DNA of 64,000 nt, taken from a bacterium (GTDB lineage: Bacteria; Patescibacteriota; CPR2; UBA1875; CAIMLA01). Each line of letters starts with the position of its first letter. Within the stretch, counting starts at the first letter, position 1. Below, piece after piece: positions 21,488-40,849 of this stretch. The translations under genes were made by a program, and so were the position numbers. The stretch lies in the NCBI GenBank assembly GCA_037129835.1, contig JBAXUE010000003.1:18793-82792 (forward strand), read 5' to 3'. Below the pieces are notes generated by a model. The model was not told the origin of the DNA and searched no databases. It saw nothing but the letters and a program-made list of their open reading frames with translations.

Positions 21488-21671
21488 TAAATCTTCCTAT
21501 TAACATGAAACATTCTATCACGCGATGAGGGTAAACTCAACAAGCTTAATATTTCTTATCCACTACATTGGGGACAAATATAGGGGGTTGTGGAAAACTT
21601 TTTTATGTATTATAATGAGCACAGATTTTACTAATTATTGGGTCTTGGGCGGATCCAAACTGGGGTGGAAA
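21488..21671. promoter_or_regulatory. yidC-dnaA intergenic region with DnaA-box-like 9-mers (oriC part / dnaA promoter)
   Basis: TTATCCACT at about 21557 and TTTTCCACA (reverse) at about 21590, each one mismatch from TTATCCACA; coordinates +/-1. Confidence 0.45.
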
Positions 21672-23036
21672 ATGGAAAAAGAACAGATATGGAAATCGGT
21701 TCTCGGGGAGTTGGAGGTGTCTTTATCAAAGGCAAACTTTACGACTTGGTTTAAAAACACTCAGATAGTCTCCGCCGACGAAAACAGCGCCGTTGTTGGT
21801 GTCCCCAATGTCTTTACTAAAGAGTGGTTAGAGAAAAAATATCATTCACAAATACTAGAGGCCATTGGGCACGTCATACCATCTATAAAAAATATCGATT
21901 ACCGAGTTGGAACTATAAAAAAACTAGAAAAAGACATCCGTCCAGCTGTAGACATTCAGAAAATAGAAGAAAGCGTAAGTTCTTCTGAGGGGATTGAGGA
22001 CGGTTATGTTTCTGTCGGAGATCTTAACCCAAAATACACACTGGAAACCTTCGTAGTCGGAAACTCAAATAAGCTGGCTTTTGCCGCCTGTCAAAGCGTT
22101 GCTGAAAATCCAGGGACAAAATATAATCCCTTATTTATTTATGGAGGGGTTGGTCTCGGCAAAACCCACTTAATGCAGGCCGTTGGTAATGCAATACATA
22201 AAATAAATAAGAAGAAAAAAGTTGTTTATGTTACTAGTGAAAAATTTACGAACGACTTTATATCCTCTATTACTGACAAAAAAACTAACGCCTTTAAAGA
22301 CAAATATCGTAAAACAGATGTACTTATTGTTGATGATATGCAGTTTCTCGCCGGTAAGGAACAAACTCAAGAAGAGTTCTTTCACACCTTTAATGCACTA
22401 CATCAAGCTAATAAGCAGATCATAATTGCCAGTGATCGTCCTCCAAAAGCAATTCCTACCCTTGAGGAGAGGCTAAGATCTAGGTTTGAATGGGGACTTC
22501 TTGTAGATATTCAGTCTCCGGATTTAGAAACAAGGATCGCTATTTTACAGAGAAAAAGTCAATCTCGGGGCTACGTAGTTCAACTTGAGGTGCTTGATTA
22601 TATTGCCAGAAATATTCAAAATAATATTCGTGAGCTTGAGGGTGCGCTCAATAGAATCCTTGCTTATTGCGAACTTAATGGTGGTCAGCCAAGCCTAGAT
22701 GTAGCAAAAACGGTTCTGAGCAGTCTTATAAATAACAGCCGCCGAAAAGGCTTTAATTCAAAACAAATTATAGAAAAAGTTGCGAGTTTTTATGACATCT
22801 CGGTCAATGAAATAATGGGAACAAAGAGAGACAAAGAGATAGTTTTGCCTAGACAAATAGCGATGTATTTAATGCGCGAAGAATTGCAGCTTTCTTATCC
22901 TAAAATAGCAAGGGAGCTTGGTAAAAAAGACCACACTACCGCTATTCATTCTTGCGATAAAATAGAAAAAGAACTAGACCACAATGAAGTGATGAGACAT
23001 GAGATAGGGTTAATAAAGGAAAGGTTATATGGTTAG
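21672..23036 (+). CDS. dnaA: Chromosomal replication initiator DnaA
   Basis: The track ORF starts at 21525 but the conserved DnaA N-terminus MEKEQIWKSVLGELEVSLSKANFTTWF begins at the internal Met with upstream GGGGTGG; Walker A GGVGLGKTHL, box VII, C-terminal HTH. Confidence 0.9.
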   Translation: MEKEQIWKSVLGELEVSLSKANFTTWFKNTQIVSADENSAVVGVPNVFTKEWLEKKYHSQILEAIGHVIPSIKNIDYRVGTIKKLEKDIRPAVDIQKIEESVSSSEGIEDGYVSVGDLNPKYTLETFVVGNSNKLAFAACQSVAENPGTKYNPLFIYGGVGLGKTHLMQAVGNAIHKINKKKKVVYVTSEKFTNDFISSITDKKTNAFKDKYRKTDVLIVDDMQFLAGKEQTQEEFFHTFNALHQANKQIIIASDRPPKAIPTLEERLRSRFEWGLLVDIQSPDLETRIAILQRKSQSRGYVVQLEVLDYIARNIQNNIRELEGALNRILAYCELNGGQPSLDVAKTVLSSLINNSRRKGFNSKQIIEKVASFYDISVNEIMGTKRDKEIVLPRQIAMYLMREELQLSYPKIARELGKKDHTTAIHSCDKIEKELDHNEVMRHEIGLIKERLYG

Positions 23037-23285
23037 TTGTGGATAAGTATGTTTATAACTAGTTATTATCCTATTTCTTCCTTGTTTAGAAAACAAAGTT
23101 AAAAAATGGGCAAGAAAAGTTATCAGCATTGTTACCAATAGTTATACCTAGGGTTGTACGGTTTTAAAAACACATAAAATAAAGTAAAATTAAGATTAAA
23201 AAAGGTCTTTTAACAAACATACACAGGGTTTATTACTAAGATTATTAATATATATTATAAATAATTAGACAAATAAGGGGATAAG
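23037..23285. promoter_or_regulatory. dnaA-dnaN intergenic oriC candidate: perfect DnaA box plus AT-rich unwinding-like stretch
   Basis: tgtggataa at about 23038-23046 is the reverse of TTATCCACA; degenerate TTATCCTAT nearby; very AT-rich stretch ttattaatatatattataaataatt just upstream of dnaN. Confidence 0.6.
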
Positions 23286-24383
23286 ATGAAAGTATCAATT
23301 CTAAAAGAAAATTTAGCAAAAGCATTATCAATTTGCGGAAGAGTAGTTTCTACTAGAGGAAGCTTAGAGATCCTTAGTAACGTAATGATTAGCACAGAAT
23401 CAGGTAGAATAAAAATATCTGCAACAAATCTAGAAGTTGGTATAAACTATTGGGTTGGTGCAAAAGTAGAAAAAGAAGGGGCTATCACAGTTCCTGCTAG
23501 ACTTATTACAGATGTTGTTAGTTCTCTTTCTAGTGAAAAAATAATATTAGACATAGAAGATACAACACTTCATATCAATTCTGACAATGACAAACTCTCT
23601 ATAAAAGGAATTTCAATTGATGAGTTTCCTCTTATTCCTAAAATAGAAAATACTACCTTTAAAATTTCTTCTAAGGTTCTTCGCGAGGCACTAAGCCAGG
23701 TTAGTTTTGCTGCAGCTCTTGATGAGGCACGCCCCGTACTTTCCGGTGTGTATATGTTAGTAGACGGGGACAAGCTTGTTTTAGCTGCGACAGACAGTTA
23801 TAGGCTTGCCGAAAAAATAATCAAATTAGAGAAAAAAGTAGCTGATAGAATAGAAGTAATTATTCCAGCAAGAGCTCTTATAGAATTATCTAGAACGCTC
23901 TCAGATCTAGAAACGGATATAAAAGTTTGTATTACCGACAACCAAATTTTATTCGCAGCAGACGAGGTAGAGTTCACATCTAGATTAATAGAAGGAAATT
24001 TTCCAAACTATAAACAAATCATCCCCGATACTAGTGATACAAAAGCAGTTGTTTCTGTAAGCGATTTTTCCAGCGTTCTAAAAGTTGCTAGCCTTTTTGC
24101 TAGAGAAAATGCCAATAGTGTTAATATATATATTAAATCAAAAGGGAAAATAGAAATAAATGCGACATCTTCGCAGGTTGGTGATAGTTCTTCTGTTATT
24201 GATGCAGAAGTAGAAGGAAAAGATGGAGAAATCGCCTTTAACAGTAAATATATTCTTGAAGTTTTATCTAGTCTTAAAAGCGAAAAAATAGAATTTGAAA
24301 TTAGTGGTAAATTAAATCCGGGAGTAATACACCCAGAGGGAGTTAAGGACTATACTTATATTATTATGCCGCTTCGCTCTTAA
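23286..24383 (+). CDS. dnaN: DNA polymerase III beta sliding clamp
   Basis: 365 aa, MKVSILKENLAKALS..., three-domain beta-clamp length, canonical dnaA-dnaN-recF order. Confidence 0.9.
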   Translation: MKVSILKENLAKALSICGRVVSTRGSLEILSNVMISTESGRIKISATNLEVGINYWVGAKVEKEGAITVPARLITDVVSSLSSEKIILDIEDTTLHINSDNDKLSIKGISIDEFPLIPKIENTTFKISSKVLREALSQVSFAAALDEARPVLSGVYMLVDGDKLVLAATDSYRLAEKIIKLEKKVADRIEVIIPARALIELSRTLSDLETDIKVCITDNQILFAADEVEFTSRLIEGNFPNYKQIIPDTSDTKAVVSVSDFSSVLKVASLFARENANSVNIYIKSKGKIEINATSSQVGDSSSVIDAEVEGKDGEIAFNSKYILEVLSSLKSEKIEFEISGKLNPGVIHPEGVKDYTYIIMPLRS

Positions 24384-24388
24384 TATTT

Positions 24389-25471
24389 ATGGAAATCAAA
24401 AGCTTAAAACTACAAAATTGGCGAAGCCATAACACATTAAACTTTGATTTTAATGAAATTACTATTATTATAGGAGTAAATGCTTCTGGAAAAACAAACT
24501 TTTTAGAAGCTATATATTATTTAGCGACCGCAAAAAGCTTTCGTTCTAAAGATATGAATTTAATTGGCTGGGAACAAAACTTTACAAGGATAGAAGCTGT
24601 TATAAATAAAGGCAATGATAAAGAAGATATTACCGTTGTTTTGGAAAAATTACCCAATTTTAGGAAGACAGTAAAGCTAAAAGAACAAAAAGTTAGTAGT
24701 AGTAAAATACTAGGTCATCTGAATTGTGTTATTTTTACCCCAGAAGAAATAGAACTAATATATACTCTTCCTGATGCAAGAAGAAGATATATAAATCTTA
24801 TACTCAGCCAGACGAACGTCAAGTATGCATATAACCTACTTCATTATAAAAAAGTTGTAGAACAAAGGAACAACCTTTTAAAGAGACTTTCAAAAGGAAC
24901 TGGGAGTATTGGCGAGTTAGAGTTGTGGGACGGCAAGCTTGCTGAATATGCCACACCAATAATAGAGGAAAGGCTAGACTATTTAAGACAAATAAATGAC
25001 AAAATAAGTGATTATTATAAAAAACTATCAAATCAAAAAGCCTCGCTAGAAATCAAATACAAGCCTTCTGTAGAGCCCGACAAAGGCTGGGCGGGGATTA
25101 TTGAAGGATTGCTTAAAAATCGCGAGAGAGACACCGTAGTTGGCTCTACAAGCATAGGACCACACCGTGATGACTTGGGTTTTATAATGAATGGTAGGGA
25201 TATCGTCGATTTTGCATCTAGGGGAGAGTTTAGGACGGTTATGCTCGCCCTAAAACTATCAGAAATAGATTACTTCTATCAAAAAACTGGGGAGAAGCCA
25301 GTTCTTCTGCTTGACGACGTATTTAGTGAGCTAGACGAATGTCGCAGAGACCTACTATCTCAGATATTTCTAAATCAACAAACAATAGTGACCACCACTG
25401 ACCTTGACCATGTTAGTAAAAATATTTTAGAAAAAGCAAAGGTAATTAATCTAGGACAAACTTGTGGATAA
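24389..25471 (+). CDS. recF: DNA replication/repair protein RecF
   Basis: Walker A GVNASGKTNFLEAI, C-terminal LLLDDVFSELD; 360 aa. Confidence 0.85.
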   Translation: MEIKSLKLQNWRSHNTLNFDFNEITIIIGVNASGKTNFLEAIYYLATAKSFRSKDMNLIGWEQNFTRIEAVINKGNDKEDITVVLEKLPNFRKTVKLKEQKVSSSKILGHLNCVIFTPEEIELIYTLPDARRRYINLILSQTNVKYAYNLLHYKKVVEQRNNLLKRLSKGTGSIGELELWDGKLAEYATPIIEERLDYLRQINDKISDYYKKLSNQKASLEIKYKPSVEPDKGWAGIIEGLLKNRERDTVVGSTSIGPHRDDLGFIMNGRDIVDFASRGEFRTVMLALKLSEIDYFYQKTGEKPVLLLDDVFSELDECRRDLLSQIFLNQQTIVTTTDLDHVSKNILEKAKVINLGQTCG

Positions 25472-25748
25472 TAACAACCTTTTTTCTAAAAGGCTCGATC
25501 AGCTTGGAATAAAAAGACAAGTTGATGCTAGTATGATAGTGGCAATGGCCCAAAAGATTATTACCGATACTTTTGGCGAAAGAGGAACAGAAAATATTCG
25601 TGTCGTATCTTTCAACAGAGGTACCTTAAAAATAACCACAACGAGCGGTGCTTGGTCTGCAGAGTGTCAGGGAATACTTCCAAAAATAAAAACACCACCC
25701 ATCGAAAGAGTAGTGTTTGTGAGTGGATATTATAACGAAGAAAATTAG
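25464..25748 (+). CDS. Small DUF721/DciA-like protein downstream of recF
   Basis: 94 aa, overlaps the recF stop; position and size match the DUF721 ORF that commonly follows recF; motif similarity is weak. Confidence 0.3.
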   Translation: MDNNNLFSKRLDQLGIKRQVDASMIVAMAQKIITDTFGERGTENIRVVSFNRGTLKITTTSGAWSAECQGILPKIKTPPIERVVFVSGYYNEEN

Positions 25749-25752
25749 CGCC

Positions 25753-26415
25753 CTAAAGATTTATATCTATTTTTTCTGTGTTGGCACCCTTGTCTTTTAG
25801 CCAAGTGATAACGTCTTCACTTGTTCCTTCGTTTGAATAAGAAACAAGAATATTGACCCTACCGTTTAGCATTAGCGAACCTTCAAAAATGGTAAATTTA
25901 TCATTTTCAACAGGTATGCTACTAATAAATTCAAAACCCTTTGTTTTACCTTCTTCAAAGGCATCTTCTTCGGACATTAATTTTTCTGTCATCGAAGTGC
26001 TGATCATCTCATTTTCTTTTAATGCCCTGGTCTTAAAAGATATGTCAGACACGCGTCCCTTTAGCGACAGAAAATCAGAATAGGGTGTTATTGTTAATGT
26101 ATATTCATTATTTGGAAGCAAGTAACCATTCTTTTCAAAACTAATAAATAATTTATTTTTACTCACCGAGGACTGCACCACTGGTTTGTAGCTTGAGTTG
26201 ATTTTGTCTTTAATTTCTACTTTTGTTAGACCCTCTTTGATGTTAGAACCATAAGTGAGGATTATCTTGGGCTCTAGCGCTACATTTTCTTGGCCTGTTA
26301 CCACAGAACTATCCTTGAGTTCGGGGGGTCTAAGAATAAAGGGTAGTGTAACTATGCCTACAAATAAAAAACCTATTAATGTAAATATTATAATCAGTCT
26401 TGTTTTTGACTCCAT
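25753..26415 (-). CDS. N-terminally anchored extracellular protein of unknown function (last gene of the T4SS/hydrolase array)
   Basis: 220 aa; single N-terminal TM (LIIIFTLIGFLFVGIVTLPFIL), rest hydrophilic and beta-rich. Confidence 0.5.
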   Translation of the reverse strand: MESKTRLIIIFTLIGFLFVGIVTLPFILRPPELKDSSVVTGQENVALEPKIILTYGSNIKEGLTKVEIKDKINSSYKPVVQSSVSKNKLFISFEKNGYLLPNNEYTLTITPYSDFLSLKGRVSDISFKTRALKENEMISTSMTEKLMSEEDAFEEGKTKGFEFISSIPVENDKFTIFEGSLMLNGRVNILVSYSNEGTSEDVITWLKDKGANTEKIDINL

Positions 26416-27023
26416 TATTCGGCCTCAAAACTATTGCCAAAACGAAGCCAGGTTCCGCGGCCATAGTTTGGATAGCTTTTAATCATCACGCAGGCACCAG
26501 CGTTGCCCTCGATGGTGTACAGTCTGGTGCCGACAATATTATAGACTATTCCAATGTGATGATCTTTCTGGATCATATCCCCAGGTTTTGGAATTTTTGT
26601 AGTGATATCGTATTTATATTTTAAGCTGTCCATCATGCCATTCGCTGCACAGGTATGAGGAAAGCTTGCACCAGCATGCCCGTATACCCACCCGGCAAAG
26701 CCTGCACACCAAGGCCAATCACTAGGAGAAAGACCACAGGCGTATTTCACATATTTTTGTGGGTCACCCTCATTTTGTTGAGATCCGGTGCCACACACCT
26801 TGGCGTCAAACTCCTTTTGGGCTTCGTCTATTATCTTTTGCCTAATCCCCGTAAGATTAGTCGGCGGCGTAAAAGCTCCTGGGATAATAGCAGTGGGAGA
26901 AAAATATGGGCAAGAAAAAAAGTCGACAGCACGAACCAGCTTGGGGTTAATTGAAATAATAACGATTAACAACAGTGTAGAAAAGATGACAGCAACCAGG
27001 TGTGTAGTTTTTTTGTTATTCAA
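26415..27023 (-). CDS. Secreted CHAP-domain peptidoglycan amidase/endopeptidase
   Basis: Signal peptide then FFSCPYFSP motif; Cys in WCAGFAGWVYGHAG and His in DHHIGIVYNIVGTRLYTIEGNAG are CHAP-like. Confidence 0.55.
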   Translation of the reverse strand: MNNKKTTHLVAVIFSTLLLIVIISINPKLVRAVDFFSCPYFSPTAIIPGAFTPPTNLTGIRQKIIDEAQKEFDAKVCGTGSQQNEGDPQKYVKYACGLSPSDWPWCAGFAGWVYGHAGASFPHTCAANGMMDSLKYKYDITTKIPKPGDMIQKDHHIGIVYNIVGTRLYTIEGNAGACVMIKSYPNYGRGTWLRFGNSFEAE

Positions 27024-27639
27024 CGGTATACTCTATCTGCAACTTGTTGTAGTCTTTGTCTGTGGCTAGTAGCCACTCTTCTGCTTCTTTGGCGTAAGTG
27101 TCTCGTTTACTAGAGTCGCCGGCCAATACTAGGGTGATTAATATATTCGGTTTTGAATCTTGATTTGCATAATTAATATCTATTCTATAATTACTTTTAT
27201 AATAAGGTAGATTGGCAAGAATGGGGTAATCCTTAACTAGCTTGTCTAATTTTTCTTGGGACTTTGTTTCCATTGCGTATTCAACATCGTATAGATCTTC
27301 TGTGGAAAGCTTGTCGTATGTAATGGTTGTCGTATCTGCATCGAGGGCGACCTCAACTGTTTGAGTCTTATTATTCGCCACATCGAAAGACGTTGTCTTA
27401 CTTATAAAAAGATCCTGAGAAAACACTATGTTATAATGGCCGGAGCTTAAATAGATTGTTTGGTCGCCAGTATATTTTTTATCTCCGATCGAATAGGAAA
27501 CCCTTTTAGGGGAAACTACAAACTTGACATTTGCACCCCCGCGCAGGGCATAGTTTACCCCAAATAAAAGAATTAAAAGCAAAGCAAAAGATCCCGCTAT
27601 AAACAAGTATAAGGTAATTTCATTTTTTGATATATTCAC
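27016..27639 (-). CDS. Membrane-anchored PEGA-domain protein (paralog of 30628..31371)
   Basis: N-terminal TM; VVSPKRVSYSIGDKKYTGDQTIYLSSGHYNIVFSQDLF is PEGA-like; C-terminal LANLPYYKSNYRIDINYANQDS is shared with 30628..31371. Confidence 0.45.
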   Translation of the reverse strand: MNISKNEITLYLFIAGSFALLLILLFGVNYALRGGANVKFVVSPKRVSYSIGDKKYTGDQTIYLSSGHYNIVFSQDLFISKTTSFDVANNKTQTVEVALDADTTTITYDKLSTEDLYDVEYAMETKSQEKLDKLVKDYPILANLPYYKSNYRIDINYANQDSKPNILITLVLAGDSSKRDTYAKEAEEWLLATDKDYNKLQIEYTVE

Positions 27640-27648
27640 TCGACCTCC

Positions 27649-28296
27649 TTATTTTAACCGAACAGCCCAAGACATATCAGAATACCACGACTTACACTTT
27701 GGTCTGTAGGCATGTTTACCGATTGATGCGCCCAAAACCCCACCAGGACACCCACAGTAGCCAGGGCCGACATAAAGCATGGCATGTGAGCCGTAGTCTA
27801 CATTAAATAGCATATCGCCTGGCTGTAGTTGTTTTGTGCTAGTTACGGGATGAATAATTTGATATTTATCAGAATGTTTATTGTAGTAGTTTTTAATAGC
27901 TTCGCCCGCTAGCGTATTTACTAGTGCGCTTGGATCTACTCCTGAATGCCTAAGAGCCGTGACCACGAAACCGTAACAGTCGGTCACTCCCTTTTCTTTT
28001 TCGTGATCGTAAAGCGAAGGATTTTTTATATATTCACAGCCTTTTGCAATAAGGGCAGTCGCACCAGCTCCAGGAGTGCCGGGCAGTCCGGGAGTGACAC
28101 CACCCGTCCCTCCGCCGCCTGTTCCGCCGCCACCCGTACCGGGGGTAACCACTGGGGATACGTAAATGGGACAATCGAGGAAGTTAATTGCCCTTGTTGT
28201 TTTGGGATAGGCAATAAAACAACAGAGAACTAAAAGAACTGCCGTGAATATTATTAAGGATTGTTTTCGTTTATTTTTCAATCTCATACCTTTCAA
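27649..28296 (-). CDS. Secreted NlpC/P60-like cell-wall endopeptidase with Gly-rich linker
   Basis: Signal peptide then INFLDCPIYVSP, linker GTGGGGTGGGGTGG, Cys in TDCYGFVVTAL and His in SHAMLYVG; C-terminal KCKSWYSDMSWAVRLK shared with 31349..32047. Confidence 0.5.
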   Translation of the reverse strand: MKGMRLKNKRKQSLIIFTAVLLVLCCFIAYPKTTRAINFLDCPIYVSPVVTPGTGGGGTGGGGTGGVTPGLPGTPGAGATALIAKGCEYIKNPSLYDHEKEKGVTDCYGFVVTALRHSGVDPSALVNTLAGEAIKNYYNKHSDKYQIIHPVTSTKQLQPGDMLFNVDYGSHAMLYVGPGYCGCPGGVLGASIGKHAYRPKCKSWYSDMSWAVRLK

Positions 28297-28966
28297 TTGT
28301 GGTTAGTCCAGTGGCAAGATTAATAATATCTAAAGGAATTCCCAGCTCATTTAATAAGGCACTATCGTAATCCGTGCCGGGGCCGTATACCACCCTCCAA
28401 ATACCTTCTTCCTTTTTTTGGATTATCATCGCATCTTCCACTTCTTCGTAGGACGCCTTTATCCACGATATGGCCCAGTCGTTAATAATTTTTTTATTTA
28501 CCGACTCAAAAGGAATATCTACATTGCCTTTTATGTTGTCATCTATTTGCTGAAAATCATTTTGATATTCATTTAGCATTTCTTTCTCTTTGAAAATAAT
28601 GAGGTTCGTTTTTTCTAGGGCTTGTTTATAGTTATTTTGTTTAATAAGGTCTGTTGCTTCTGATAAATCTTTATCAAAATATTCAGGATTGTAATTTATT
28701 TCAGCTAAGTCATTTTTAATACCTGCACGAATGACAGCTATAGAGTAGTTAATACATGTGGACTCATTGTCTTCACAGTTTGGGTATTCTTCTGAGGGCG
28801 TCCATTTATCATTACTAGCTAGTTCTTTAAAGGTTCTCGCATCGTAGGCCGTTGTAGATTGTTGAACCAGATATATAAGGCCAATAATAACAAGTAGCGC
28901 CAAGGACAAGCCCGAAATAGCCACGATATAAAGTGTTTTTTTGTCTTTTATTAGATTGGTTTCCAA
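28271..28966 (-). CDS. N-terminally anchored extracellular protein, unknown function
   Basis: 231 aa, one N-terminal TM (LYIVAISGLSLALLVIIGLIYLV), acidic ectodomain; overlaps neighbours (operonic). Confidence 0.5.
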   Translation of the reverse strand: METNLIKDKKTLYIVAISGLSLALLVIIGLIYLVQQSTTAYDARTFKELASNDKWTPSEEYPNCEDNESTCINYSIAVIRAGIKNDLAEINYNPEYFDKDLSEATDLIKQNNYKQALEKTNLIIFKEKEMLNEYQNDFQQIDDNIKGNVDIPFESVNKKIINDWAISWIKASYEEVEDAMIIQKKEEGIWRVVYGPGTDYDSALLNELGIPLDIINLATGLTTIERYEIEK

Positions 28967-28999
28967 AGTTGCCCCCTTATTTTTTTAGATAAGACCCAT

Positions 29000-29533
29000 T
29001 CACTCCACTAACCCTAGGTCAAAAACCTTAAAAGCGTTTCCCTCGTCCTTTATTATTGTTATCCAATAATTTTGTTTTAAAGAATTTTTTTCTGTAGAGC
29101 TTGATAGCGTTGTATCAACACTTACTAAAAGGCACATATGCCCACCCTCTTGTTCCTCGCAGTATTCTACCGGCCCAGATGCGGCAGAGCTGTCTGTTAT
29201 AGGAGATACGAGGTTTACGTTTTCATATTCCAAGACAGGGCTGTCTTTTGTAAAATATTTTAGCAACCTTTCTTTGCGGGATTCTGTTGTTTCAGAAATT
29301 GATTGTTGGGAATACTCTTCTATTGCTTTCTGCGCCAATAATGTCTGATTGTTTAGGCTCCATTCCTCCCGCTTGTCCGCTACGCTATTCGTTATTTGCT
29401 TATCGTTTTTCTTATTTGTTGTTACTTTTTCATTTGTGGAATTAATATATAGCACGAAACCTATAAATATTAATATAGTGCCAGCGATAATAGATATAAG
29501 CAGCATTTTATTTTTATTCATCTTAACCTCCAC
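29000..29533 (-). CDS. N-terminally anchored extracellular protein, unknown function
   Basis: 177 aa, N-terminal TM (MLLISIIAGTILIFIGFVLYI), Cys-containing ectodomain. Confidence 0.5.
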   Translation of the reverse strand: MEVKMNKNKMLLISIIAGTILIFIGFVLYINSTNEKVTTNKKNDKQITNSVADKREEWSLNNQTLLAQKAIEEYSQQSISETTESRKERLLKYFTKDSPVLEYENVNLVSPITDSSAASGPVEYCEEQEGGHMCLLVSVDTTLSSSTEKNSLKQNYWITIIKDEGNAFKVFDLGLVE

Positions 29534-30641
29534 TCATTGACCAATGCCAATCCTCTGCAGGATAATTAATAAAACCATATGTTGCACCATTTTTCTTTAA
29601 CCATTTATATACAGGATCTCCCTTGCTTACTAACGATCCTTTATAAGTAAAGTCAATAGCAAGGCCTCTTTCGTGATTAGAGTTTCCTGGTTTGGCTACC
29701 TTACCTCCACAATTTGGTGAGCAACCGGCATATATACCTTGTTGCGTTTCGTAACTGCGAAACCCGCTCCCGCTTAAGGAGACGCCGTCTGCCTTTGCTG
29801 CCGCAATCATTTCCACTGTTCTTTGAGAAATTAGGGCGTTAACCACCCCTACTGCAGTGCCACACTTTCGGAAAGTAAATCCGTTCGTCGGGTGCTTATA
29901 AGTCCCCTTGTCAGAAGAACCTGAGGCATATGCGACACTTGAATAATCCGTTCCATTCTTTAAGCTCCACCCACTTCCCTTACTGATGGTATTTGCTGGC
30001 TTTGCAGTGCCAGAACCACCACCAACACTTGTTGTGGTTGTTGGTGTTGCGGCCAGCTTGCATTTTGGTCTCGAGAAACCGGCTAGATCAGAGCGCCCAT
30101 AAGAAGAGATTCTAACATATGCCCCCGTATATGGAGCCTCTATCATTTTGCCACCACCGATTACCATTCCTACGTGGTGGATAGGACTCCCGAAAAACAC
30201 TAAATCCCCGGGTAGCTCGCTTCCTTTACTGACCTTTGGCTGACCAGAGTATTGGTCACCAGAATAATGCGGCAATGAAACACCTGCCTTTTTATACGCA
30301 TATAGCATGAGCCCCGAGCAATCAAAGCTATTGGGGCCAGCGGCTGCCCAAACGTAAGGCTTCCCTATTTGTTTCTGAGCTTCGGCTACGGCGATGGCGG
30401 CACAGGCATTCGGTGTACCGCTGATAGTCCCCCCACCAGCACCACCACCCGTCCCACCACCAATACCCGGAATCGTTGGCAAGGTTATGGGCTTGATATA
30501 AATAGGACACTCCCAAAAGGAGATAGCCATTGTTTTAATGGGTATTATGAATAACAGACCAAGGCTCACAAACAATAGTCCAAACAAAAGAAATACTTTT
30601 CTTGGAACCAGCCTCTTTATTTTATTGTTATTCCGCGACAT
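29523..30641 (-). CDS. Bifunctional secreted peptidoglycan hydrolase: NlpC/P60 endopeptidase + VanY/M15 D,D-carboxypeptidase-like domain
   Basis: Signal peptide then ISFWECPIYIKP, Gly linker GGGTGGGAGGGT, NlpC/P60 Cys FDCSGLMLYAY and His HHVGMVIGGG; C-terminal SGFRSYETQQ and NSNHERGLAIDF match M15 Zn-peptidase motifs. Confidence 0.6.
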   Translation of the reverse strand: MSRNNNKIKRLVPRKVFLLFGLLFVSLGLLFIIPIKTMAISFWECPIYIKPITLPTIPGIGGGTGGGAGGGTISGTPNACAAIAVAEAQKQIGKPYVWAAAGPNSFDCSGLMLYAYKKAGVSLPHYSGDQYSGQPKVSKGSELPGDLVFFGSPIHHVGMVIGGGKMIEAPYTGAYVRISSYGRSDLAGFSRPKCKLAATPTTTTSVGGGSGTAKPANTISKGSGWSLKNGTDYSSVAYASGSSDKGTYKHPTNGFTFRKCGTAVGVVNALISQRTVEMIAAAKADGVSLSGSGFRSYETQQGIYAGCSPNCGGKVAKPGNSNHERGLAIDFTYKGSLVSKGDPVYKWLKKNGATYGFINYPAEDWHWSMSGG

Positions 30642-31371
30642 ACCTCACCTGTAGGTTTGCATAGTTAGGATCTTCTGTTTTTAGCCAATCTTCCGCTGCT
30701 TGTTTAAAGGGGCCTTCTAGTTCGGTTGCGCCTTTTGTCAAAAGAGTTATCTCTATAAATGGCAAGGCTGAGTCATCGTTTTCGTAGCTTATGTCAATAT
30801 GATAGTCGCCGGTATAGTATGGTAGACTGCCAAGTATGGGGTATGAAGAAACTAGGTCGGCCAACTCTTTATCCCCTTCTGCCTCTGATATTTTGTCTAT
30901 AGTATTTTGTTCTTCGATAGACAACTCCTCATAATAAGCGTTGGCGGCCTCGTCACTCGTTTGTTCGTTGAAATAATCTACAACCTTTTTGTCTGCCGCA
31001 GATAGATCGTCATATTTAATTTTATTGCTACTTTTTAAGCTTAGAGGAATCAGGTCTACCGCAATTGTTTGATCTTTATTGCGTTCTGCTATTATCTCAA
31101 TATTCTTGTCGTTAAATAAGTCTCTTTTAAAAATGACGTTGTAATGTCCAGGAGGAACTACGATTGTTTGGTTCCCAGTATATTTTTTCTTATTTATTGT
31201 GTATGTAGCATCTGCGGGACTAATCGCGATATAGATTTTTGTAGTATTGCCTACAAAAAACAATAAACTGATTCCTAGTGCCAAAATAATAAATGTTGCA
31301 AACGCTATTAGGGCATATAAAATATTCTTTTTTTTCTGTTCTTCCATCTTAATTACCCTCTTCAAAATCAC
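30628..31371 (-). CDS. Membrane-anchored PEGA-domain protein (paralog of 27016..27639)
   Basis: N-terminal TM; IAISPADATYTINKKKYTGNQTIVVPPGHYNVIFKRDLF PEGA-like; C-terminal LGSLPYYTGDYHIDISYENDDS. Confidence 0.45.
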   Translation of the reverse strand: MILKRVIKMEEQKKKNILYALIAFATFIILALGISLLFFVGNTTKIYIAISPADATYTINKKKYTGNQTIVVPPGHYNVIFKRDLFNDKNIEIIAERNKDQTIAVDLIPLSLKSSNKIKYDDLSAADKKVVDYFNEQTSDEAANAYYEELSIEEQNTIDKISEAEGDKELADLVSSYPILGSLPYYTGDYHIDISYENDDSALPFIEITLLTKGATELEGPFKQAAEDWLKTEDPNYANLQVRYVAE

Positions 31372-32047
31372 TTAGTTTGGCCATAGCTAGCAATTCCTGT
31401 ATTTCGTCATCGCTGGGGCTTTCTACTAATTGGCCCACAGCGGGTTTAAGTCTTACGACTGTTGTCATTTTCTTTGTCCAGCTGCTGCACTTTGGGCCAT
31501 GTCCACCAAGTGAGGCTGAAATTACGCCACCCTTACAGCCACAATATTTTGAACCAACAAACATGCTGGCGTGCGAGTTTGATGACTTGGTGCTAAAAAG
31601 CATGTCCCCAGGCATCAACTTCTTGGTGCTTTTTATCCCCTTTATGACCTCATATTTATCAGTGTTTTTGCTGAAATATTTTGGAGCTTGATATGCCTGT
31701 CCCGAATCTGGAACCTTGGTGTCTACTTTGGTTCGTCGAAGCGCAGTAATCAGCATACCCCAGCAGTCTGTAAAGTCCTTGGACTTGACCTTTTCTTTTT
31801 TATAGAGCGACGAGCTATTTTTATAATCACACACCTTTTTTTTAAGTGTTTCTGCATCTATATAATATTCTTGATTACAACTTCCCGGCGGAGATGTAAA
31901 CATGGGGCAGGGAATAGCCTCTGCAAATGCCACACCCCCCCATATTTGTCTGTCCACAACATTGAAAGCGCAGATGAATAATGCCAAAATCGATGCGGCT
32001 AGAATAATAATAGTTAGTCTTGTCTTTTTTCTGATATTTTTCCTCAT
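31349..32047 (-). CDS. Secreted NlpC/P60-like endopeptidase (paralog of 27649..28296)
   Basis: Likely start at MRKNIRKK with GGGGAGG 4 nt upstream (track start 32071); AIPCPMFTSP after the signal, Cys in TDCWGMLITAL, His in SHASMFVG, C-terminal KCSSWTKKMTTVVRLK. Confidence 0.5.
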   Translation of the reverse strand: MRKNIRKKTRLTIIILAASILALFICAFNVVDRQIWGGVAFAEAIPCPMFTSPPGSCNQEYYIDAETLKKKVCDYKNSSSLYKKEKVKSKDFTDCWGMLITALRRTKVDTKVPDSGQAYQAPKYFSKNTDKYEVIKGIKSTKKLMPGDMLFSTKSSNSHASMFVGSKYCGCKGGVISASLGGHGPKCSSWTKKMTTVVRLKPAVGQLVESPSDDEIQELLAMAKLSDFEEGN

Positions 32048-32251
32048 TTTTCCTCCCCAAGTATCACTCAAATAACATTATATATGGATACAAGTCAAAA
32101 TAATACTATTGAGCATGTGTTAATGTTTGTCCTTTGGCGAAATGGTTTCCTCGATTCTTGCTGGGCTATACGACTGATAATGTTTAGATAATGATGCGTT
32201 GAAGCATAAAAGGAGGCTGTTTTTAAATTAAGGCCCCCGCTACTCGGTTGT

Positions 32252-32776
32252 TTAGCCGGCCTTGCCTCCAGTGTTTGCGGTCATATCAAAATAAACGGTT
32301 TCGAGATTAGTTTTGTTTATTATTGAGTTATTAATATAATCCTTAGCTTCGTTCTTATATTTTTCGAAAGGCAGCTGATAAACAGTAATGTTGCAGATGT
32401 TACCACTTTCCATTTCTGTGCAATCTACGCTGTATTCCGACCCAATATAAGGGAGAAGATAGCTCTTTTTTAACTCATAAGTCTTGTTTCGGGTTTTGTT
32501 GGTCACTTCCAGTGTCGAAATCTCTGTCAGATAATCGTCTTTAGATATTTCGATTTTATATTTACCGGTCTTTAGTTCTATGGTTATCGGTGAGTTTCCG
32601 ACCACGGCACCATCGATTTTTATCTTTGCTGACCCAGGCACTGTGTTTATTGTTATTTTAGGTTTTCCGCTAAGCGCACTTGCAACCAGGGTAAGGACCA
32701 ATATTACTAGAAACAGAATTATAATTGCTATAATTATTTTAGTTTTTGTTTCTAGGTTAGAAATTATGGTGTACAT
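32252..32776 (-). CDS. Membrane-anchored PEGA-domain protein
   Basis: N-terminal TM then TINTVPGSAKIKIDGAVVGNSPITIELKTGKYKIEISKDDYL, a close match to the PEGA pattern. Confidence 0.45.
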   Translation of the reverse strand: MYTIISNLETKTKIIIAIIILFLVILVLTLVASALSGKPKITINTVPGSAKIKIDGAVVGNSPITIELKTGKYKIEISKDDYLTEISTLEVTNKTRNKTYELKKSYLLPYIGSEYSVDCTEMESGNICNITVYQLPFEKYKNEAKDYINNSIINKTNLETVYFDMTANTGGKAG

Positions 32777-34740
32777 GTTATTGCGCTCCCAGCATTGTTA
32801 TTAATTTTCGTTATCCACTGCTTGATCTCATTTATATAGGTTGCGGTATCGTTTTGCGTTGGGGGTGCATATTCCATCATCATGTCCGGTATCGTTTTTA
32901 TTCCCATCCCTTTTATATATACTCTTTTAATATAAACGGAAATATTGTCGCTACCAGTAAGGCTATCGTCCCAGGAATTCCACTTGTAATAAATCGAGCC
33001 GCTTGGGTGGGGCTGGCTACCGCCTGCCTGTCTCCCAAAAGAATTATGGCTGCCCTTACTTGTCCCACTTCCAACGCTTCCAAATTGAGTTTCTTTTCTG
33101 GCTAATGATACTAGTAAAGCAGGATTAATATTTGAGGCCTTGCCACTGGCCAAGAAAAGGGCGCCCTTACCGCTTAACGGCTTCCCGCTACCGATAAATT
33201 TATTAAGGGCCGCAATATATTTTGCTTCATCAGAAATATTTGGAAAAGCAACCGAAATGCAGGCGGTTGTTGAGGCAGTACCACCGGGTGTAGGAGTCGT
33301 GGGCCCGGCCGGCGTAGAGGGTGACGGAGTAGACGGAGTAGAAGGAGCAGGGGCCGCGGTACCCGTCTTGGGGCTATCAAAAACCTTACATGTTCCCGTT
33401 AGTGTTTCGGGCAATGTGCCAGGAACGTATTCCCATTCTTCCCTGTCGGGCGGGTTTGCTGGAAAGGCGGCCTTCATGTAAGTGACAAATTCCTTAATGT
33501 GACCACTATTTTCATCCCCCCACCCTGGAGTTTTGGGGCGAAGAGGTATAAGTTCCGGCCTAGTGAGCCTGAAGAAGGTCGCTGCCCCCACATCGTTGGT
33601 TCCAAGAAAGTTGTTCAATACGTCCATAGCTTTTTCAAAAGGCAGTAGTGGTAATTTCGCGAGACCCTTAAATGCCTCCCATCCAGCTACCAATATGTTT
33701 GTCCTTAGTTGTCTCCAAAATCTTGCGATATCACCCTCATAGTCTTCGAGAATATATTTATCAGTAAACGGCTCATATAGGAACCAAATCTTGCTTGCAA
33801 GATCGTCTATTTTTCGCCACTGTCCGATATAGACAATATTTCTATAAGGATCAATATCTGCAGGGGACATATCGTTTTTATTTGCATCTTGTAGAGCAAT
33901 ACGGATTTTACCAGCACGGCAACGGATGGCCTCTATCGCACATTTATGATAACAAACAGGGTCGATTTCTGGACCTGTCAGAGTTATTACGGTGCATTTA
34001 AGATAGCACTCTGGGATCTGGTCTGCGATGTTAGTTTCCTTGTAGTCTATCGCTGCCAATATCTCTGGCGTTGTTTTGTTATATTTTTCTTTTTCGCCAG
34101 TCGGGCTGCCGTTTTCGTCTACCACTGAATAGGTTTTTCCAAGATCCCAATCTTTGCCGCTAGAATCCTTATAGCCATTCGCTGCCTGTACGTAAGCGTC
34201 ATAGTAGGTAATAAACCGTTGCATGGCTGCAGTCGGGACGTCTGCTTTTGGGCAGCTGTCTCCCCAGCCCCCTGCGATGAATGAAACTGACACAAAAACA
34301 GTCCCTATTACCATGGCTAGGGGCAAGAAAGCACAACTTGCAACGCAAGCAAGAGCGGCCAAAGCTTCCAAAAAGGCCTTTATCAACCGCTTTATCATTC
34401 TTTTCCAGAATTCTTTATCAAAAGCAAGCTTAAGTAGTTCCAGGTCTGCCATCACGTCAGTTCCGACTGATTCAATAGCTCTTGCACCGGCCTGAACACC
34501 CTTGACTACCTTTTTTGCATCTTCAACACCCTCTTTGATCTTTTGGCCAGTCTTTGAGTTCCCGGCAGCATCAATGGCCCCTTCTTTGCCCTTTTTTACA
34601 GCATATCCAATAGGGTCCTTATTAATTTCGCCTATTTTGTCTTTTACACCACCACCGATTTTATCAGCACCAGCTTTAACACCACTGCCAACCTTGTCAG
34701 CACCGGCTTTTGCCAGTTTTCCTAAGTTCTCCAGGCCCAC
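32764..34740 (-). CDS. PrgK-like large membrane-anchored extracellular protein: N-terminal GADK repeats, TM, Cys-rich ectodomain, Pro/Thr linker, C-terminal putative muramidase-like domain
   Basis: 658 aa; repeats GADKVGSGVKAGADKIGGGVKDKIG; TM at about aa 130-165; linker TAAPAPSTPSTPSPSTPAGPTTPTPGG; C-terminal NINPALLVSLARKETQFG loosely resembles a glucosaminidase/lysozyme core; directly downstream of VirB4. Confidence 0.35.
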   Translation of the reverse strand: MGLENLGKLAKAGADKVGSGVKAGADKIGGGVKDKIGEINKDPIGYAVKKGKEGAIDAAGNSKTGQKIKEGVEDAKKVVKGVQAGARAIESVGTDVMADLELLKLAFDKEFWKRMIKRLIKAFLEALAALACVASCAFLPLAMVIGTVFVSVSFIAGGWGDSCPKADVPTAAMQRFITYYDAYVQAANGYKDSSGKDWDLGKTYSVVDENGSPTGEKEKYNKTTPEILAAIDYKETNIADQIPECYLKCTVITLTGPEIDPVCYHKCAIEAIRCRAGKIRIALQDANKNDMSPADIDPYRNIVYIGQWRKIDDLASKIWFLYEPFTDKYILEDYEGDIARFWRQLRTNILVAGWEAFKGLAKLPLLPFEKAMDVLNNFLGTNDVGAATFFRLTRPELIPLRPKTPGWGDENSGHIKEFVTYMKAAFPANPPDREEWEYVPGTLPETLTGTCKVFDSPKTGTAAPAPSTPSTPSPSTPAGPTTPTPGGTASTTACISVAFPNISDEAKYIAALNKFIGSGKPLSGKGALFLASGKASNINPALLVSLARKETQFGSVGSGTSKGSHNSFGRQAGGSQPHPSGSIYYKWNSWDDSLTGSDNISVYIKRVYIKGMGIKTIPDMMMEYAPPTQNDTATYINEIKQWITKINNNAGSAITCTP

Positions 34741-36516
34741 CTATTCCGCCTCTTCTTTTTTCAGCGCCTTCTCTGGGTTTGTGTTCGCCAACAGGTTTTC
34801 TTGGTAACTTGGGATTATTTGCATAGCAACATGCCGAAGCCCAGCAATAAACAATCCCTCACCAACACCAGTAGTTACTAAGTAGTCTCTCTCTGTTTCT
34901 GTTAGTTTCCACGCCTCTTTAACATAATCAACTTGCGCCGGATGCTGCCGGAGGAGTATCGCCATAGAAGAGTTTTGTGCGATTGCGCGACCGTATTCGG
35001 AGCCAAAAAAGTCGGCTGCATCTTGAGCAATACAGGTAAGGCCAAGATAATATTTACGTCCTCTTTTTGCTAGCGAGAAAAGGAATTGTGCCGATTCAGG
35101 ATATTTCATAAGTACCCAGGCTTCATCAACAAACAAGAGGCGCTTTTTCTTTTCGCTTTTGATTTTATTCCAGATAAAGTTAAGTATTGAATACATTGCT
35201 ATCGGTCTCAGCTCATCCTCAAGGTCCCTGATAGAGAAAACCACCAAACGATTTTGCATACTTACATTGGATTGCTGATTCATAAGACCCGAGTATGTAC
35301 CATTTGTGTATTTATCTAGTCGAACCGCGATACTTTCACCGCCGTTGATGCTCTCCAAAACTTTTTGAAGATCATGAAATGTAGGTGGTTGTAATCCGTG
35401 AGTTTTTGGGTCTTCGGTAATACCCTTGGATGCGTATGCCTCGATGATTGCTTTGTCTAAAACATTGCTTTCTTCTGGAGAAATATTTCCAACCATGACT
35501 CGCACTAAACCAGCTAGCATTATTGTATTGCTACGAATGGACTCTATTGCCTCTTTTTCGTCATTTATCAAGGGAAGATCAAACGGATTTACGTGCTGTT
35601 CTGAATTAATGTTTATACTCAAGTAGCTGCCACCAAAGGCCAAAGAGAGCTCTTCATATTCATTTTCCGGATCAATTACAAGAATATCGGTGCCAAGAAT
35701 AAGAGACCTTATTAGCTCTAGCTTTACAGTATAGCTTTTCCCGGCTCCAGACATAGCGATAACAACAGAATTATAATTTGGTAAACTAAAGCGATCAAAA
35801 ATAATTAAACTATTGTTTATTTTGTTAATACCGTAAAACACCCCTGTATCTTGAGATAATGTGTCGGACAAGAATGGGAAAAAGGTGGAGATGGCCTCGG
35901 TGTCTAGGTTTCTTCCTATGGATATTTCCTCTCTATCAAGCGGTAGGGTCGAGTTGAACCCTTCTTTGCCTTGATAGAGTGTCCTTTTTGAATACACCAA
36001 GAGCTCATTAAGCATTTTTTCTACTCGATCAACACTGTCATTTAGTGATTCCATCGTTTCTGCGTATATGGTGAGATAGAATCCTACTTTAAATATTTTT
36101 GTCTGACCCGTAGCGATTTTTTCACGTAGATTCTCTACGTCCGCATATTTTGCCTCAAGGCCAGGATCCCTAACGAGACCTCTCTGGGCATTCATATCTA
36201 GAGTCGACTCTAACTGAGTTGACTTTCCTCTTAGTCTTTGGGCAATAGCTGCGTTGTCTTGAGGGTAGATGTGGATAGAAACATCAAGGGGTAGGTCGGT
36301 ATTAATGGTTTGTGAGAGCCATCCCGGGAAGAGCATCCTTGGGTAGTCGTATACAAATAGAGTTGTAAGATATACCTGGCCAAGCTTCAGGTGATCTACT
36401 GCTATTTCCAAAGCAGAAGGAGCCAGCAAGTCTCTTACACTTGTAAGCCCTTGTTGGAATACCTGCATTGCTCGAGTCTGTCTTAGTTCGTCTGCGCTTT
36501 TATTCTCTTGAAACAT
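34741..36516 (-). CDS. virB4: Type IV secretion ATPase VirB4/TrbE/PrgJ family (C-terminal two-thirds)
   Basis: Walker A VIAMSGAGKSYT, DPENEY, Walker B RLLFVDEAWVLM; 591 aa; Walker A at about aa 245, so the usual ~200-aa N-terminal domain is missing from this ORF. Confidence 0.7.
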   Translation of the reverse strand: MFQENKSADELRQTRAMQVFQQGLTSVRDLLAPSALEIAVDHLKLGQVYLTTLFVYDYPRMLFPGWLSQTINTDLPLDVSIHIYPQDNAAIAQRLRGKSTQLESTLDMNAQRGLVRDPGLEAKYADVENLREKIATGQTKIFKVGFYLTIYAETMESLNDSVDRVEKMLNELLVYSKRTLYQGKEGFNSTLPLDREEISIGRNLDTEAISTFFPFLSDTLSQDTGVFYGINKINNSLIIFDRFSLPNYNSVVIAMSGAGKSYTVKLELIRSLILGTDILVIDPENEYEELSLAFGGSYLSININSEQHVNPFDLPLINDEKEAIESIRSNTIMLAGLVRVMVGNISPEESNVLDKAIIEAYASKGITEDPKTHGLQPPTFHDLQKVLESINGGESIAVRLDKYTNGTYSGLMNQQSNVSMQNRLVVFSIRDLEDELRPIAMYSILNFIWNKIKSEKKKRLLFVDEAWVLMKYPESAQFLFSLAKRGRKYYLGLTCIAQDAADFFGSEYGRAIAQNSSMAILLRQHPAQVDYVKEAWKLTETERDYLVTTGVGEGLFIAGLRHVAMQIIPSYQENLLANTNPEKALKKEEAE

Positions 36517-37875: not shown

Positions 37876-37911
37876 TTATCTTCCTATATACCATTTAATG
37901 CTTCTTTACAC

Positions 37912-40329: not shown

Positions 40330-40440
40330 TTAATAATCATTAACAATAGTTTAAAACATATTACACTTTCAAGCAATAAAAAAGATGCTTCATGTGGAAG
40401 CATCTTGCGAAGTAATCTTTCGAACCCCTGGTTTGTTTCT

Positions 40441-40797: not shown

Positions 40798-40849
40798 TCC
40801 TTATTATAAAAATATTTTAACATGTGCAGACCCATAGTCAACATCTTTT

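Follow-up and report, generated by a model that had tools for sequence, protein, structure and literature searches.

The window analysed here, a stretch of 64,000 nt that forms part of a 162,780-bp metagenomic contig from an ultra-small bacterium (Patescibacteria/CPR), carries a type IV secretion system (T4SS) operon in which genes for five predicted exported wall hydrolases alternate with genes for four to five small PEGA-type membrane proteins. We name the latter the PL family, that is, PEGA-type single-pass proteins whose ectodomain consists of a beta-sandwich (PEGA or, once, Big_5), a helix and a small alpha/beta domain. Judged from gene content and gene order, our comparison of related loci shows PL to be a conserved family belonging to T4SS operons across Saccharibacteria, and shows that it is tightly coupled there to the hydrolase gene immediately upstream. 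It shows, moreover, that a predicted unit made up of an NlpC/P60-type hydrolase gene and a PL gene (Nlp + PL) was duplicated before this organism and a relative split, and that both have kept the two copies in the same order. We believe, with slightly better than even confidence, that PL proteins are anchored in the membrane as partners of the T4SS wall hydrolase encoded just upstream, which they would position or regulate.

Results

Organization of the array

Operon coordinates are given in window numbering and refer to the minus strand. Directly after the VirB4 gene, 11 open reading frames (ORFs) lie head-to-tail on this strand from 34740 to 25753, and most of their junctions either overlap or measure less than 35 nt. 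In the order of transcription they are Gluc_658, PEGA_174, Nlp_240, PL_247, NlpVanY_372, TcpC_177, X_231, Nlp_215, PL_207, CHAP_202 and Big5_220, the last gene of the operon. The sole sizeable gap, of 180 nt (32072-32251), separates PEGA_174 from Nlp_240 and parts the Gluc_658/PEGA_174 pair from the other array genes; no clear internal promoter or terminator was found in it by a simple scan. On the predicted functions, the register of the array is Gluc_658-PEGA_174, Nlp_240-PL_247, NlpVanY_372-TcpC_177 plus X_231, Nlp_215-PL_207 and CHAP_202-Big5_220. An initial annotation of this DNA had proposed a duplicated two-gene module; the ORFs that it listed, a part of those above, are indeed present on the minus strand. 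The module is real, but the pairing was one gene off, each PEGA-type protein having been joined to the hydrolase behind it; the conserved unit is hydrolase then PL in the direction of transcription. Nlp_240 (31349, with its end placed at 32047) had been described as lacking a partner and is in fact followed by PL_247; the products of 28271-28966 and 29000-29533 had been counted as PEGA partners and neither is a PEGA protein; and the three copies listed left out a third paralog, PEGA_174 (32252-32776, PEGA E 8e-11). The decisive context, a T4SS operon of which the array makes up the distal end, had also been missed.

Co-duplication of hydrolase and PL genes

Formal alignment bore out the paralogy that had been proposed from short peptide matches, themselves present as quoted. 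By blastp, PL_207 and PL_247 were 35.7% identical over 241 aa (E 1.7e-38), and Nlp_215 and Nlp_240 were 36.6% identical over 227 aa (E 2.3e-38), the PL and Nlp pairs being equally diverged (36-37%); PEGA_174 matched PL_207 at E 7e-4. A metagenome scan with the Nlp_215/240 subfamily returned two short contigs only. In a related organism, represented by two overlapping short contigs (L085 and L086), the gene order is an orthologue of Nlp_240, P0003, an Nlp_215-like gene, P0005 and a VanY-type protein bearing the leader described below for the hydrolases. P0003 was nearest to PL_247 (46%, 220 bits) and P0005 to PL_207 (34%, 132 bits). The Nlp genes sorted like the PL genes, Nlp_240 being 58% identical to its orthologue in L085 and Nlp_215 63% identical to that in L086. 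Since the orthologies of PL and Nlp genes in the relative are congruent, the predicted unit was duplicated before the two organisms split. The genes behind each PL differ in L085/L086, and the hydrolase-then-PL adjacency is kept.

PL and hydrolase genes in related loci

We collected 80 genome loci using VirB4 as the only seed. The PL profile gave 36 matches in them, every one (36/36) located downstream of VirB4 and sharing its strand. The usual layout was VirB4, a protein of ~800-1100 aa, a protein of ~400-730 aa, a PL of ~210 aa, an optional protein of ~211-250 aa and a convergent recF-dnaN-dnaA. In 32 of 33 cases PL shared its strand with the gene directly upstream, at a spacing of -19 to +68 nt, and 7 of the 10 upstream neighbours sampled were Pfam-positive wall hydrolases (Phage_lysozyme2, Amidase_3, Glucosaminidase or NlpC/P60); several upstream neighbours ended in an Nlp_215-type domain. 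One and the same PL family is found behind differing folds, namely Phage_lysozyme2, GH73, Amidase_2/3, NlpC/P60, C39-like and CHAP.

Hydrolase and PL genes alternate in L005 (C39-like, PL, Amidase_2+Glucosaminidase, PL), in L007 (231 aa, PL, C39-like, PL), in L008 (242 aa, PL, M15+NlpC/P60, then an X_231-like protein carrying the PL C-domain) and in L085-L086. When PL was used as the seed, three of four look-ups landed in a T4SS operon, just ahead of recF-dnaN-dnaA. The fourth fell on L090 (5755-9669), a distant metagenomic contig in which PL also alternates, in the order 416 aa, PL (219 aa), 427 aa and PL (222 aa). The two alternating proteins of ~420 aa had no Pfam match, and the 9 kb upstream held groES-groEL and no VirB4. 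On these predicted gene orders, the expansion of PL has occurred more than once and, going by L090, perhaps away from virB4.

The PL proteins

The first partner in the array, PEGA_174 (32252..32776), is predicted to consist of a transmembrane (TM) helix, a PEGA domain (Pfam PEGA, E 8.2e-11) and a PL-type C-terminal domain; it scored 75.8 bits against the PL family profile, 26.8 bits for the C-domain, and there is a 13-nt overlap between its gene and the stop of Gluc_658. It is the sole Pfam-positive PEGA protein of the array. The second partner, PL_247 (30628..31371; 222.6 bits against the family profile), has a TM helix, a PEGA-like sandwich, a helix with an insertion and a C-terminal alpha/beta domain, and the third, PL_207 (27016..27639; 36% identical to PL_247), a TM helix, a PEGA-like sandwich, a helix and a C-terminal domain. 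The AlphaFold2 model of PL_207, built on a 26-sequence alignment (pLDDT 94.7), places a TM helix at residues 5-32, a seven-stranded PEGA-like beta-sandwich at 35-98, a long helix at 113-137 and a beta-beta-alpha-beta domain at 146-206. PL_207 and PL_247 scored 208.7-222.6 bits against the family profile and had no Pfam match at all, the gathering threshold of PEGA (PF08308), 20.8 bits, not being reached; their earlier labelling as PEGA proteins agrees with model and profile but not with Pfam. A fourth partner, Big5_220 (25753..26415), combines a TM helix, a Big_5 Ig-like domain (Pfam Big_5, E 2.8e-5) and a probable PL-type C-terminal domain, the C-terminus having matched the PL C-domain profile over 62 columns (hhalign probability 65%, E 5.9e-5).

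PL proteins are typically ~200-225 aa long, and their C-terminal alpha/beta domain bears a YPI..LPY..Y.ID motif. A profile of the three paralogs gave 1333 matches at E<=1e-3 among 1.8 billion representative proteins, and about two-thirds of the best 150 were single-stretch, full-length matches of ~200-225 aa. In a word-indexed protein search, PL_247 retrieved only itself. The PL C-domain gave no significant match to PepSY or any other domain, and the NTF2-like periplasmic fold that marks the bitopic T4SS proteins VirB8, TcpC and PrgL was not found.

The array encodes two further bitopic proteins. TcpC_177 (29000..29533) is a possible TcpC/VirB8-like component (Pfam TpcC, E 0.0018, 18.5 bits, below the cut-off of 27); it had no sequence match in the PDB and one homologue only in the word-indexed protein search. 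X_231 (28271..28966; 231 aa) matched, through residues 8-211, an ORF of L008 (14839-15813; blastp E 4e-10), and this homologue is fused to a PL-type C-domain (its residues 258-316, 23.8 bits). In Nanosyncoccus-type genomes (L014, L020, L022, L027, L059 and L074; ORFs of ~302-312 aa), PL is fused to a C-terminal domain resembling SEML1_0004, a T4SS-locus protein of Southlakia epibionticum, and this domain matches the separate 211-250-aa protein located after PL in other Saccharibacteria. X_231 itself scored a non-significant 1.9 bits against the SEML1_0004-like profile, the fusion in L008 being the only, and indirect, link. Through such fusions the bitopic proteins of the array are all linked functionally, and that of PL with the SEML1_0004-like domain is a gene-fusion link between two essential orphan proteins.

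The wall hydrolases

Five Sec-exported hydrolases are predicted: one GH73-like, two divergent NlpC/P60, one NlpC/P60+M15 fusion and one CHAP. The first, Gluc_658 (32764..34740), matched Pfam Glucosaminidase at E 4.5e-6 with 27.8 bits, below the cut-off of 30.2. Hydropathy indicated a long N-terminal region, a hydrophobic segment at residues 119-160 and a C-terminal GH73/glucosaminidase-like domain. Analogues come after VirB4 in L005 and L017, and a single-sequence search of the PDB gave no relevant match. The second and fourth, Nlp_240 (31349..32071) and Nlp_215 (27649..28296), are predicted exported, divergent NlpC/P60-type cysteine peptidases. The former passed the NLPC_P60 cut-off of 23 bits at the border (E 6e-5, 23.4 bits) and the latter failed it (22.2 bits). 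In hhalign, a profile of their domain could be aligned to canonical NlpC/P60 through both catalytic motifs (E 3e-4, probability 39%), and its top four matches in the PDB were all NlpC/P60, at E 0.1-0.4. A single-sequence PDB search with Nlp_215 was uninformative, linkers of Gly and Ser in single-chain antibody fragments (scFv) having matched through the Gly-rich tether. Both proteins end in the PKC(K/S)SW...VRLK sequence, the shared C-terminus on which the initial annotation had remarked.

The third enzyme, NlpVanY_372 (29523..30641), is a predicted exported two-domain NlpC/P60 and VanY/M15B protein (Pfam E 1.7e-23 and 1.1e-14), with 83 bits for NlpC/P60, above threshold, and 54.8 bits for VanY against a cut-off of 25. 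It had NCBIfam matches of the RipA/RipC/LdcB type, including LdcB/VanY, and 40 solved relatives in the PDB at E<=1e-5. The best relative of its NlpC/P60 domain was the 'Hub-Hydrolase (CD1368)' chain of 8v3w (E 9.7e-28), followed at ~1e-13 by hydrolases of Tn916-like conjugative transposons. Both zinc motifs of the M15 domain are intact in the translation (SxHxxGxAxD as SNHERGLAID, ExxH as EDWH), and it is reasonable to propose that the enzyme could cut two bonds, one in the stem peptide and the terminal D-Ala. The gene call on the source contig starts at an internal ATG (335 aa) and drops the signal peptide; the 372-aa form, called on other contigs, keeps a leader of the type seen in the paralogs (L001 10818-11825 versus L002 2100-3218). 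Fusions of the NlpC/P60+M15 type are common in these operons, as in L008. The fifth enzyme, CHAP_202 (26415..27023), is a predicted exported CHAP/NlpC-type cysteine peptidase (Pfam CHAP, E 6.5e-5, 23.8 bits, below the cut-off of 26), which also matched TIGR02594 (1.8e-5) and, by blastp, NlpVanY_372 (E 7e-7); its top PDB matches were Tn916-like conjugative wall hydrolases, at E 0.07 only. The hydrolase names first given to these genes are thus upheld by Pfam thresholds for NlpVanY_372 and, marginally, for Nlp_240, and not for Nlp_215 and CHAP_202. The catalytic Cys and His columns (C103 and H167 in Nlp_240) are invariant in the alignment of all four cysteine peptidases, with DCSG, DCYG, DCWG and WCAG as Cys motifs and HHVG, SHAM, SHAS and HHIG as His motifs.

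All eleven array proteins have one N-terminal hydrophobic segment each. The hydrolases contain 6-11 Cys residues, PEGA_174 two, and PL_207, PL_247 and Big5_220 none. Although their catalytic domains differ, the four cysteine peptidases share a leader running to A-x-A, an x-F-x-(D/E/S)-C-P-x-(Y/F) motif and a Gly/Pro-rich tether, and Gluc_658 has WGDSCP past its membrane segment (around 34200-34300). Related forms of this C-P motif occur in the enzymes of the L085/L086 relative (ALDFDGCPVF, AIDFNDCGAF) and in L005 and L006 (DSLCPIL, NACPQP, DTCPTL). The juxtamembrane motif was confined to this clade and these closest relatives (L005, L006, L085 and L086), and T4SS hydrolases of Saccharibacteria in general showed no enrichment (5/130, against 21/363 in the background). 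A lipobox was considered and rejected, as the motif does not fit one. Our best guess is that it serves as a docking peptide on a flexible tether.

The T4SS operon and its surroundings

The array closes a single minus-strand operon (25753-41655) of three pilin genes, PrgI, a TraC-like gene, VirB4 and the hydrolase genes. By its predicted components, this is a chromosomal T4SS of the Patescibacteria type (monoderm, MPF_FATA-like), and the hydrolase region is its distal half. The operon starts with three tandem VirB2-like pilin genes (41245-41655, 40850-41284 and 40441-40797; Pfam T4SS_pilin/TrbC, E 1.8e-8 to 2.2e-5), ahead of which a simple scan placed a promoter-like site (41742-41714). A strong terminator-like hairpin with a 10 bp stem and a T-run (40406-40382) follows the third pilin gene and precedes an 805-aa gene, which suggests that pilin transcripts would be in excess of those of the remaining operon. 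The 805-aa protein (37912..40329) is by position a candidate VirB6-like channel subunit. It had no Pfam or NCBIfam match and takes the slot that a protein of 800-1100 aa occupies upstream of PrgI in related loci, one such protein (L091) having a TrbL_3 match. Next come PrgI (VirB3-like; 37174..37875; Pfam PrgI, 9.2e-10), a TraC-like/TrsD-like protein of 224 aa (36500..37174; PF26593 TraC-like, as precomputed for the identical source-contig gene) and the VirB4 ATPase (34741..36516; Pfam P-loop_TraG, 1.4e-21, plus AAA_10). This VirB4 is 50-61% identical to those of metagenome-assembled genomes of Patescibacteria/Saccharibacteria.

Past Big5_220 there is a terminator-like hairpin (25718-25690, minus strand; simple scan), and the operon converges with recF-dnaN-dnaA. 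On the plus strand, dnaA-dnaN-recF (21525-25471) and a 94-aa gene (together 21525..25748; ORFs, with Pfam on the identical source contig) form a replication-origin context, and the same convergence follows the PL gene in most related loci. Among ~40 ORFs scanned, a part of those in the window, none had a relaxase or coupling-protein (T4CP) domain, and the scanned neighbourhood had no phage structural or integrase genes.

Elsewhere in the window, a T2SSE/PilB-type ATPase (44218-45888, minus strand; 3e-109) lies 2.5 kb beyond the T4SS operon and is probably part of a type IV pilus machinery, which is also essential in Saccharibacteria. A FemAB-family transferase and a Mur ligase are encoded side by side (57302-59615, plus strand). 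From these two genes, the organism is predicted to make peptidoglycan itself, an interpeptide bridge being probable; this wall would be a potential substrate of its own hydrolases. We also observed a heliorhodopsin gene (50905-51672, minus strand; Pfam Heliorhodopsin, 1.2e-86) in this small-genome Patescibacterium, and a 651-aa subtilase (13330-15285, minus strand; Peptidase_S8, 8e-53) with a C-terminal DUF5648, amid genes for rhamnose/nucleotide-sugar metabolism and glycosyltransferases.

Discussion

Patescibacterial T4SS with downstream hydrolases are already known. Quinonero-Coronel et al. 2025 (PMC12102498) described systems of monoderm type, often beside dnaA and usually without relaxase, with few VirB8 homologues in Patescibacteria and most T4SS loci lacking a VirB1 homologue. 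The operon studied here agrees with that description in layout and in its nearness to dnaA. Since the region is a Patescibacterial T4SS operon, its hydrolases are expected rather than surprising. In S. epibionticum (Wang et al. 2023, Tables S1/S2; PMC10633639) the T4SS spans SEML1_0004-0019, with VirB4 (SEML1_0008), a DD-peptidase protein (0007), 0006 and 0005 in this order, which is also that of the operon tail described here, 0005 lying between 0006 and 0004, next to recF. SEML1_0006 has two lysozyme domains and a cysteine-proteinase domain, and SEML1_0005, 211 aa long and annotated only as an 'exported protein of unknown function', combines a PEGA/E-set domain (template 3e8v) with a second, small one; 0005, 0006, 0007 and 0008 were all scored essential by transposon sequencing (Tn-seq; PMC10633639). 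By size, position and domain annotation, the PL family corresponds to SEML1_0005. The main texts of PMC10633639 and PMC12102498 do not discuss the PEGA-type family as a T4SS component. As far as the searchable literature shows, PL as a constant hydrolase-linked component, the co-duplication of PL and hydrolase, and the split, expanded array with a shared leader motif are new.

If PL proteins are partners of the hydrolases, as we favour, each would hold, position or restrain the enzyme encoded upstream. It would do so on the outside of the membrane, at the point where the secretion apparatus and its pilus have to pass through the cell wall, the organism's own and possibly the host's. Most Saccharibacteria would do this with two giant multidomain hydrolases and one PL, whereas this lineage would use single-domain enzymes with their own signal peptides, and the number of partners would have grown with that of enzymes. 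Several observations weigh against this proposal. Tandem duplication copies neighbours mechanically, and co-duplication alone is no proof of functional coupling; typical Saccharibacteria have two hydrolase genes and one PL, so that the ratio is not strictly 1:1; in L037 the PL gene comes directly after VirB4; NlpVanY_372 precedes two different bitopic proteins and no PL; the PL C-domain of Big5_220 is assigned at an hhalign probability of 65% only; and the equivalence with SEML1_0005 is one of size, position and domain annotation. The proposal can also be taken further, PL being then a class, hitherto unrecognised, of dedicated docking or safety-catch proteins in which each paralog would bind one enzyme, possibly through the F-x-x-C-P peptide on the Gly-rich tether, hold it inactive on the producer's wall, and free or display it where the pilus meets the host. 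We regard this extension as doubtful. Were it true, the array would be a host-wall-breaching arsenal with built-in self-protection, and the essential Saccharibacterial T4SS would have a concrete job in epibiotic feeding.

The explanation that best survives next to the partner role is that PL proteins are stand-alone structural subunits of the T4SS, possibly forming a membrane-anchored ring or stalk through the wall zone in the role of the VirB8/PrgL/TcpC-type bitopic proteins, which are hard to find in such systems, in which case their adjacency to hydrolases would be mere operon order and the extra copies would be subunits of a heteromeric ring. PL is conserved in T4SS operons whatever the type of upstream hydrolase, has a bitopic topology like that of VirB8, follows VirB4 directly in L037 and is fused to a SEML1_0004-like domain in Nanosyncoccus-type loci; its counterpart SEML1_0005 is essential in S. 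epibionticum (PMC10633639), and VirB8 homologues reported in Patescibacteria are few (PMC12102498). A structural role leaves unexplained, however, why PL copy number goes up only in cases where hydrolases are divided among a larger number of genes, why PL and hydrolase genes alternate in five independent loci, and why the Nlp + PL adjacency was kept in two lineages while the flanking genes changed. On balance we consider this explanation possible but not probable.

It is unlikely, and more so than a structural role, that the hydrolases are weapons directed at the host wall at the contact site, or are toxic to their producer, with the downstream PL as cognate immunity protein. The order, a toxin followed by a tightly coupled small exported or anchored protein, fits such a system. 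The enzyme set covers glycan, stem-peptide and D-Ala bonds, and the FemAB and Mur ligase genes (57302-59615) point to a cross-bridged peptidoglycan of the organism's own. Bacteria-killing T4SS with hydrolase effectors and immunity proteins exist in Xanthomonas. The Patescibacterial T4SS, lacking a relaxase, is thought to deliver proteins (PMC10633639; PMC11665869), and hydrolase and partner are both essential in S. epibionticum, as would be expected if loss of immunity were lethal. The hydrolases themselves are essential, however, and hence not accessory toxins (PMC10633639). Moreover, they bear Sec-type leaders with A-x-A sites, unlike cytoplasmic T4SS substrates, and PL evolves slowly enough to be traced across the class with a single profile. 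Effector/immunity is less likely because one partner family accompanies unrelated enzyme folds, whereas known immunity proteins are fold-specific active-site blockers; the initial annotation had suggested either this or an enzyme/adaptor organization, and the latter fits better. That the array holds ordinary growth or division autolysins, or the lysis cassette of a remnant prophage, beside the T4SS by chance is a reading that we reject on context and find scarcely credible: NlpC/P60, CHAP, M15 and GH73 are common in housekeeping autolysins and phage lysins, and the solved structure nearest to the NlpC domain is that of a phage-tail-like hub-hydrolase (8v3w), but the eleven packed same-strand genes come straight after VirB4, mostly with overlapping stops and starts, with the sole terminator-like site past the last one, the same hydrolase and PL genes come after VirB4 in dozens of genomes, and phage structural and integrase genes are absent from the scanned neighbourhood.

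The statement that most of these loci lack VirB1 (PMC12102498) needs qualifying, as a Pfam-detectable lysozyme, amidase or NlpC lies between VirB4 and PL in 7 of the 10 loci sampled and in several close relatives; the hydrolases appear divergent rather than absent. The Saccharibacterial T4SS is essential for epibiotic growth, and a review calls its role 'completely unknown' (PMC11665869). Our results point to a small PEGA-type membrane protein as a near-constant companion of the wall hydrolases in the T4SS operon, one that duplicates together with a hydrolase, and they offer a genetically testable hypothesis for the essential orphan gene SEML1_0005. The natural pairs of single-domain hydrolase and partner described here should, in addition, lend themselves to expression and assay more readily than the proteins of 600-1100 aa found in cultivated strains.

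Comparison with known systems

The operon resembles the T4SS of Saccharibacteria in its VirB2-like pilin array, PrgI, TraC/TrsD-like protein and VirB4, in the hydrolases directly downstream of VirB4, in a ~210-aa exported PEGA protein near the operon end and in the convergent recF-dnaN-dnaA by the replication origin. It differs from them in having five smaller enzymes instead of the usual two multidomain hydrolases (~1000 and ~600 aa), three clear PEGA-type copies plus a Big_5 variant, two extra bitopic proteins and a clade-specific C-P motif.

Gram-positive conjugation systems have VirB1-type hydrolases such as PrgK of pCF10, TraG of pIP501, CwlT of ICEBs1 and the Tn916 Orf14/CD419 family. 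Like the operon described here, they combine a muramidase or glucosaminidase with NlpC/P60 or CHAP in a T4SS operon, where it is needed to pass a thick wall. They rely on a single multidomain enzyme that has no PEGA-type partner gene dedicated to it; the present array encodes several single-domain enzymes, and behind each of them comes a non-catalytic protein anchored in the membrane.

Bacteria-killing systems encode effector/immunity pairs, such as X-Tfe/X-Tfi of the Xanthomonas X-T4SS and Tae/Tai of the type VI secretion system (T6SS). The likeness lies in a wall-degrading enzyme gene beside that of a small envelope protein, in or near a secretion locus. In those pairs each immunity protein meets one effector fold, whereas PL goes with many folds, and X-T4SS and T6SS effectors carry secretion-system signals and no Sec leader, unlike the enzymes studied here with their Sec-type leaders.

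In SleB-YpeB of Bacillus spores, the gene for an exported wall hydrolase is followed by that for a single-pass protein, and the partner stabilises, localises and restrains the enzyme. The parallel, a bicistronic arrangement of a hydrolase and a single-pass partner with small alpha/beta ectodomains, is a functional analogy only, with no sequence or fold relationship shown, and the context is a T4SS instead of spore germination. The closest known domain to the PL sandwich is, in turn, PEGA (PF08308), a transthyretin-like, CarboxypepD_reg-like beta-sandwich. PEGA_174 passes the Pfam threshold, while PL_207 and PL_247 are too divergent for it, and the PL family is defined equally by its C-terminal alpha/beta domain, which lies outside PEGA.

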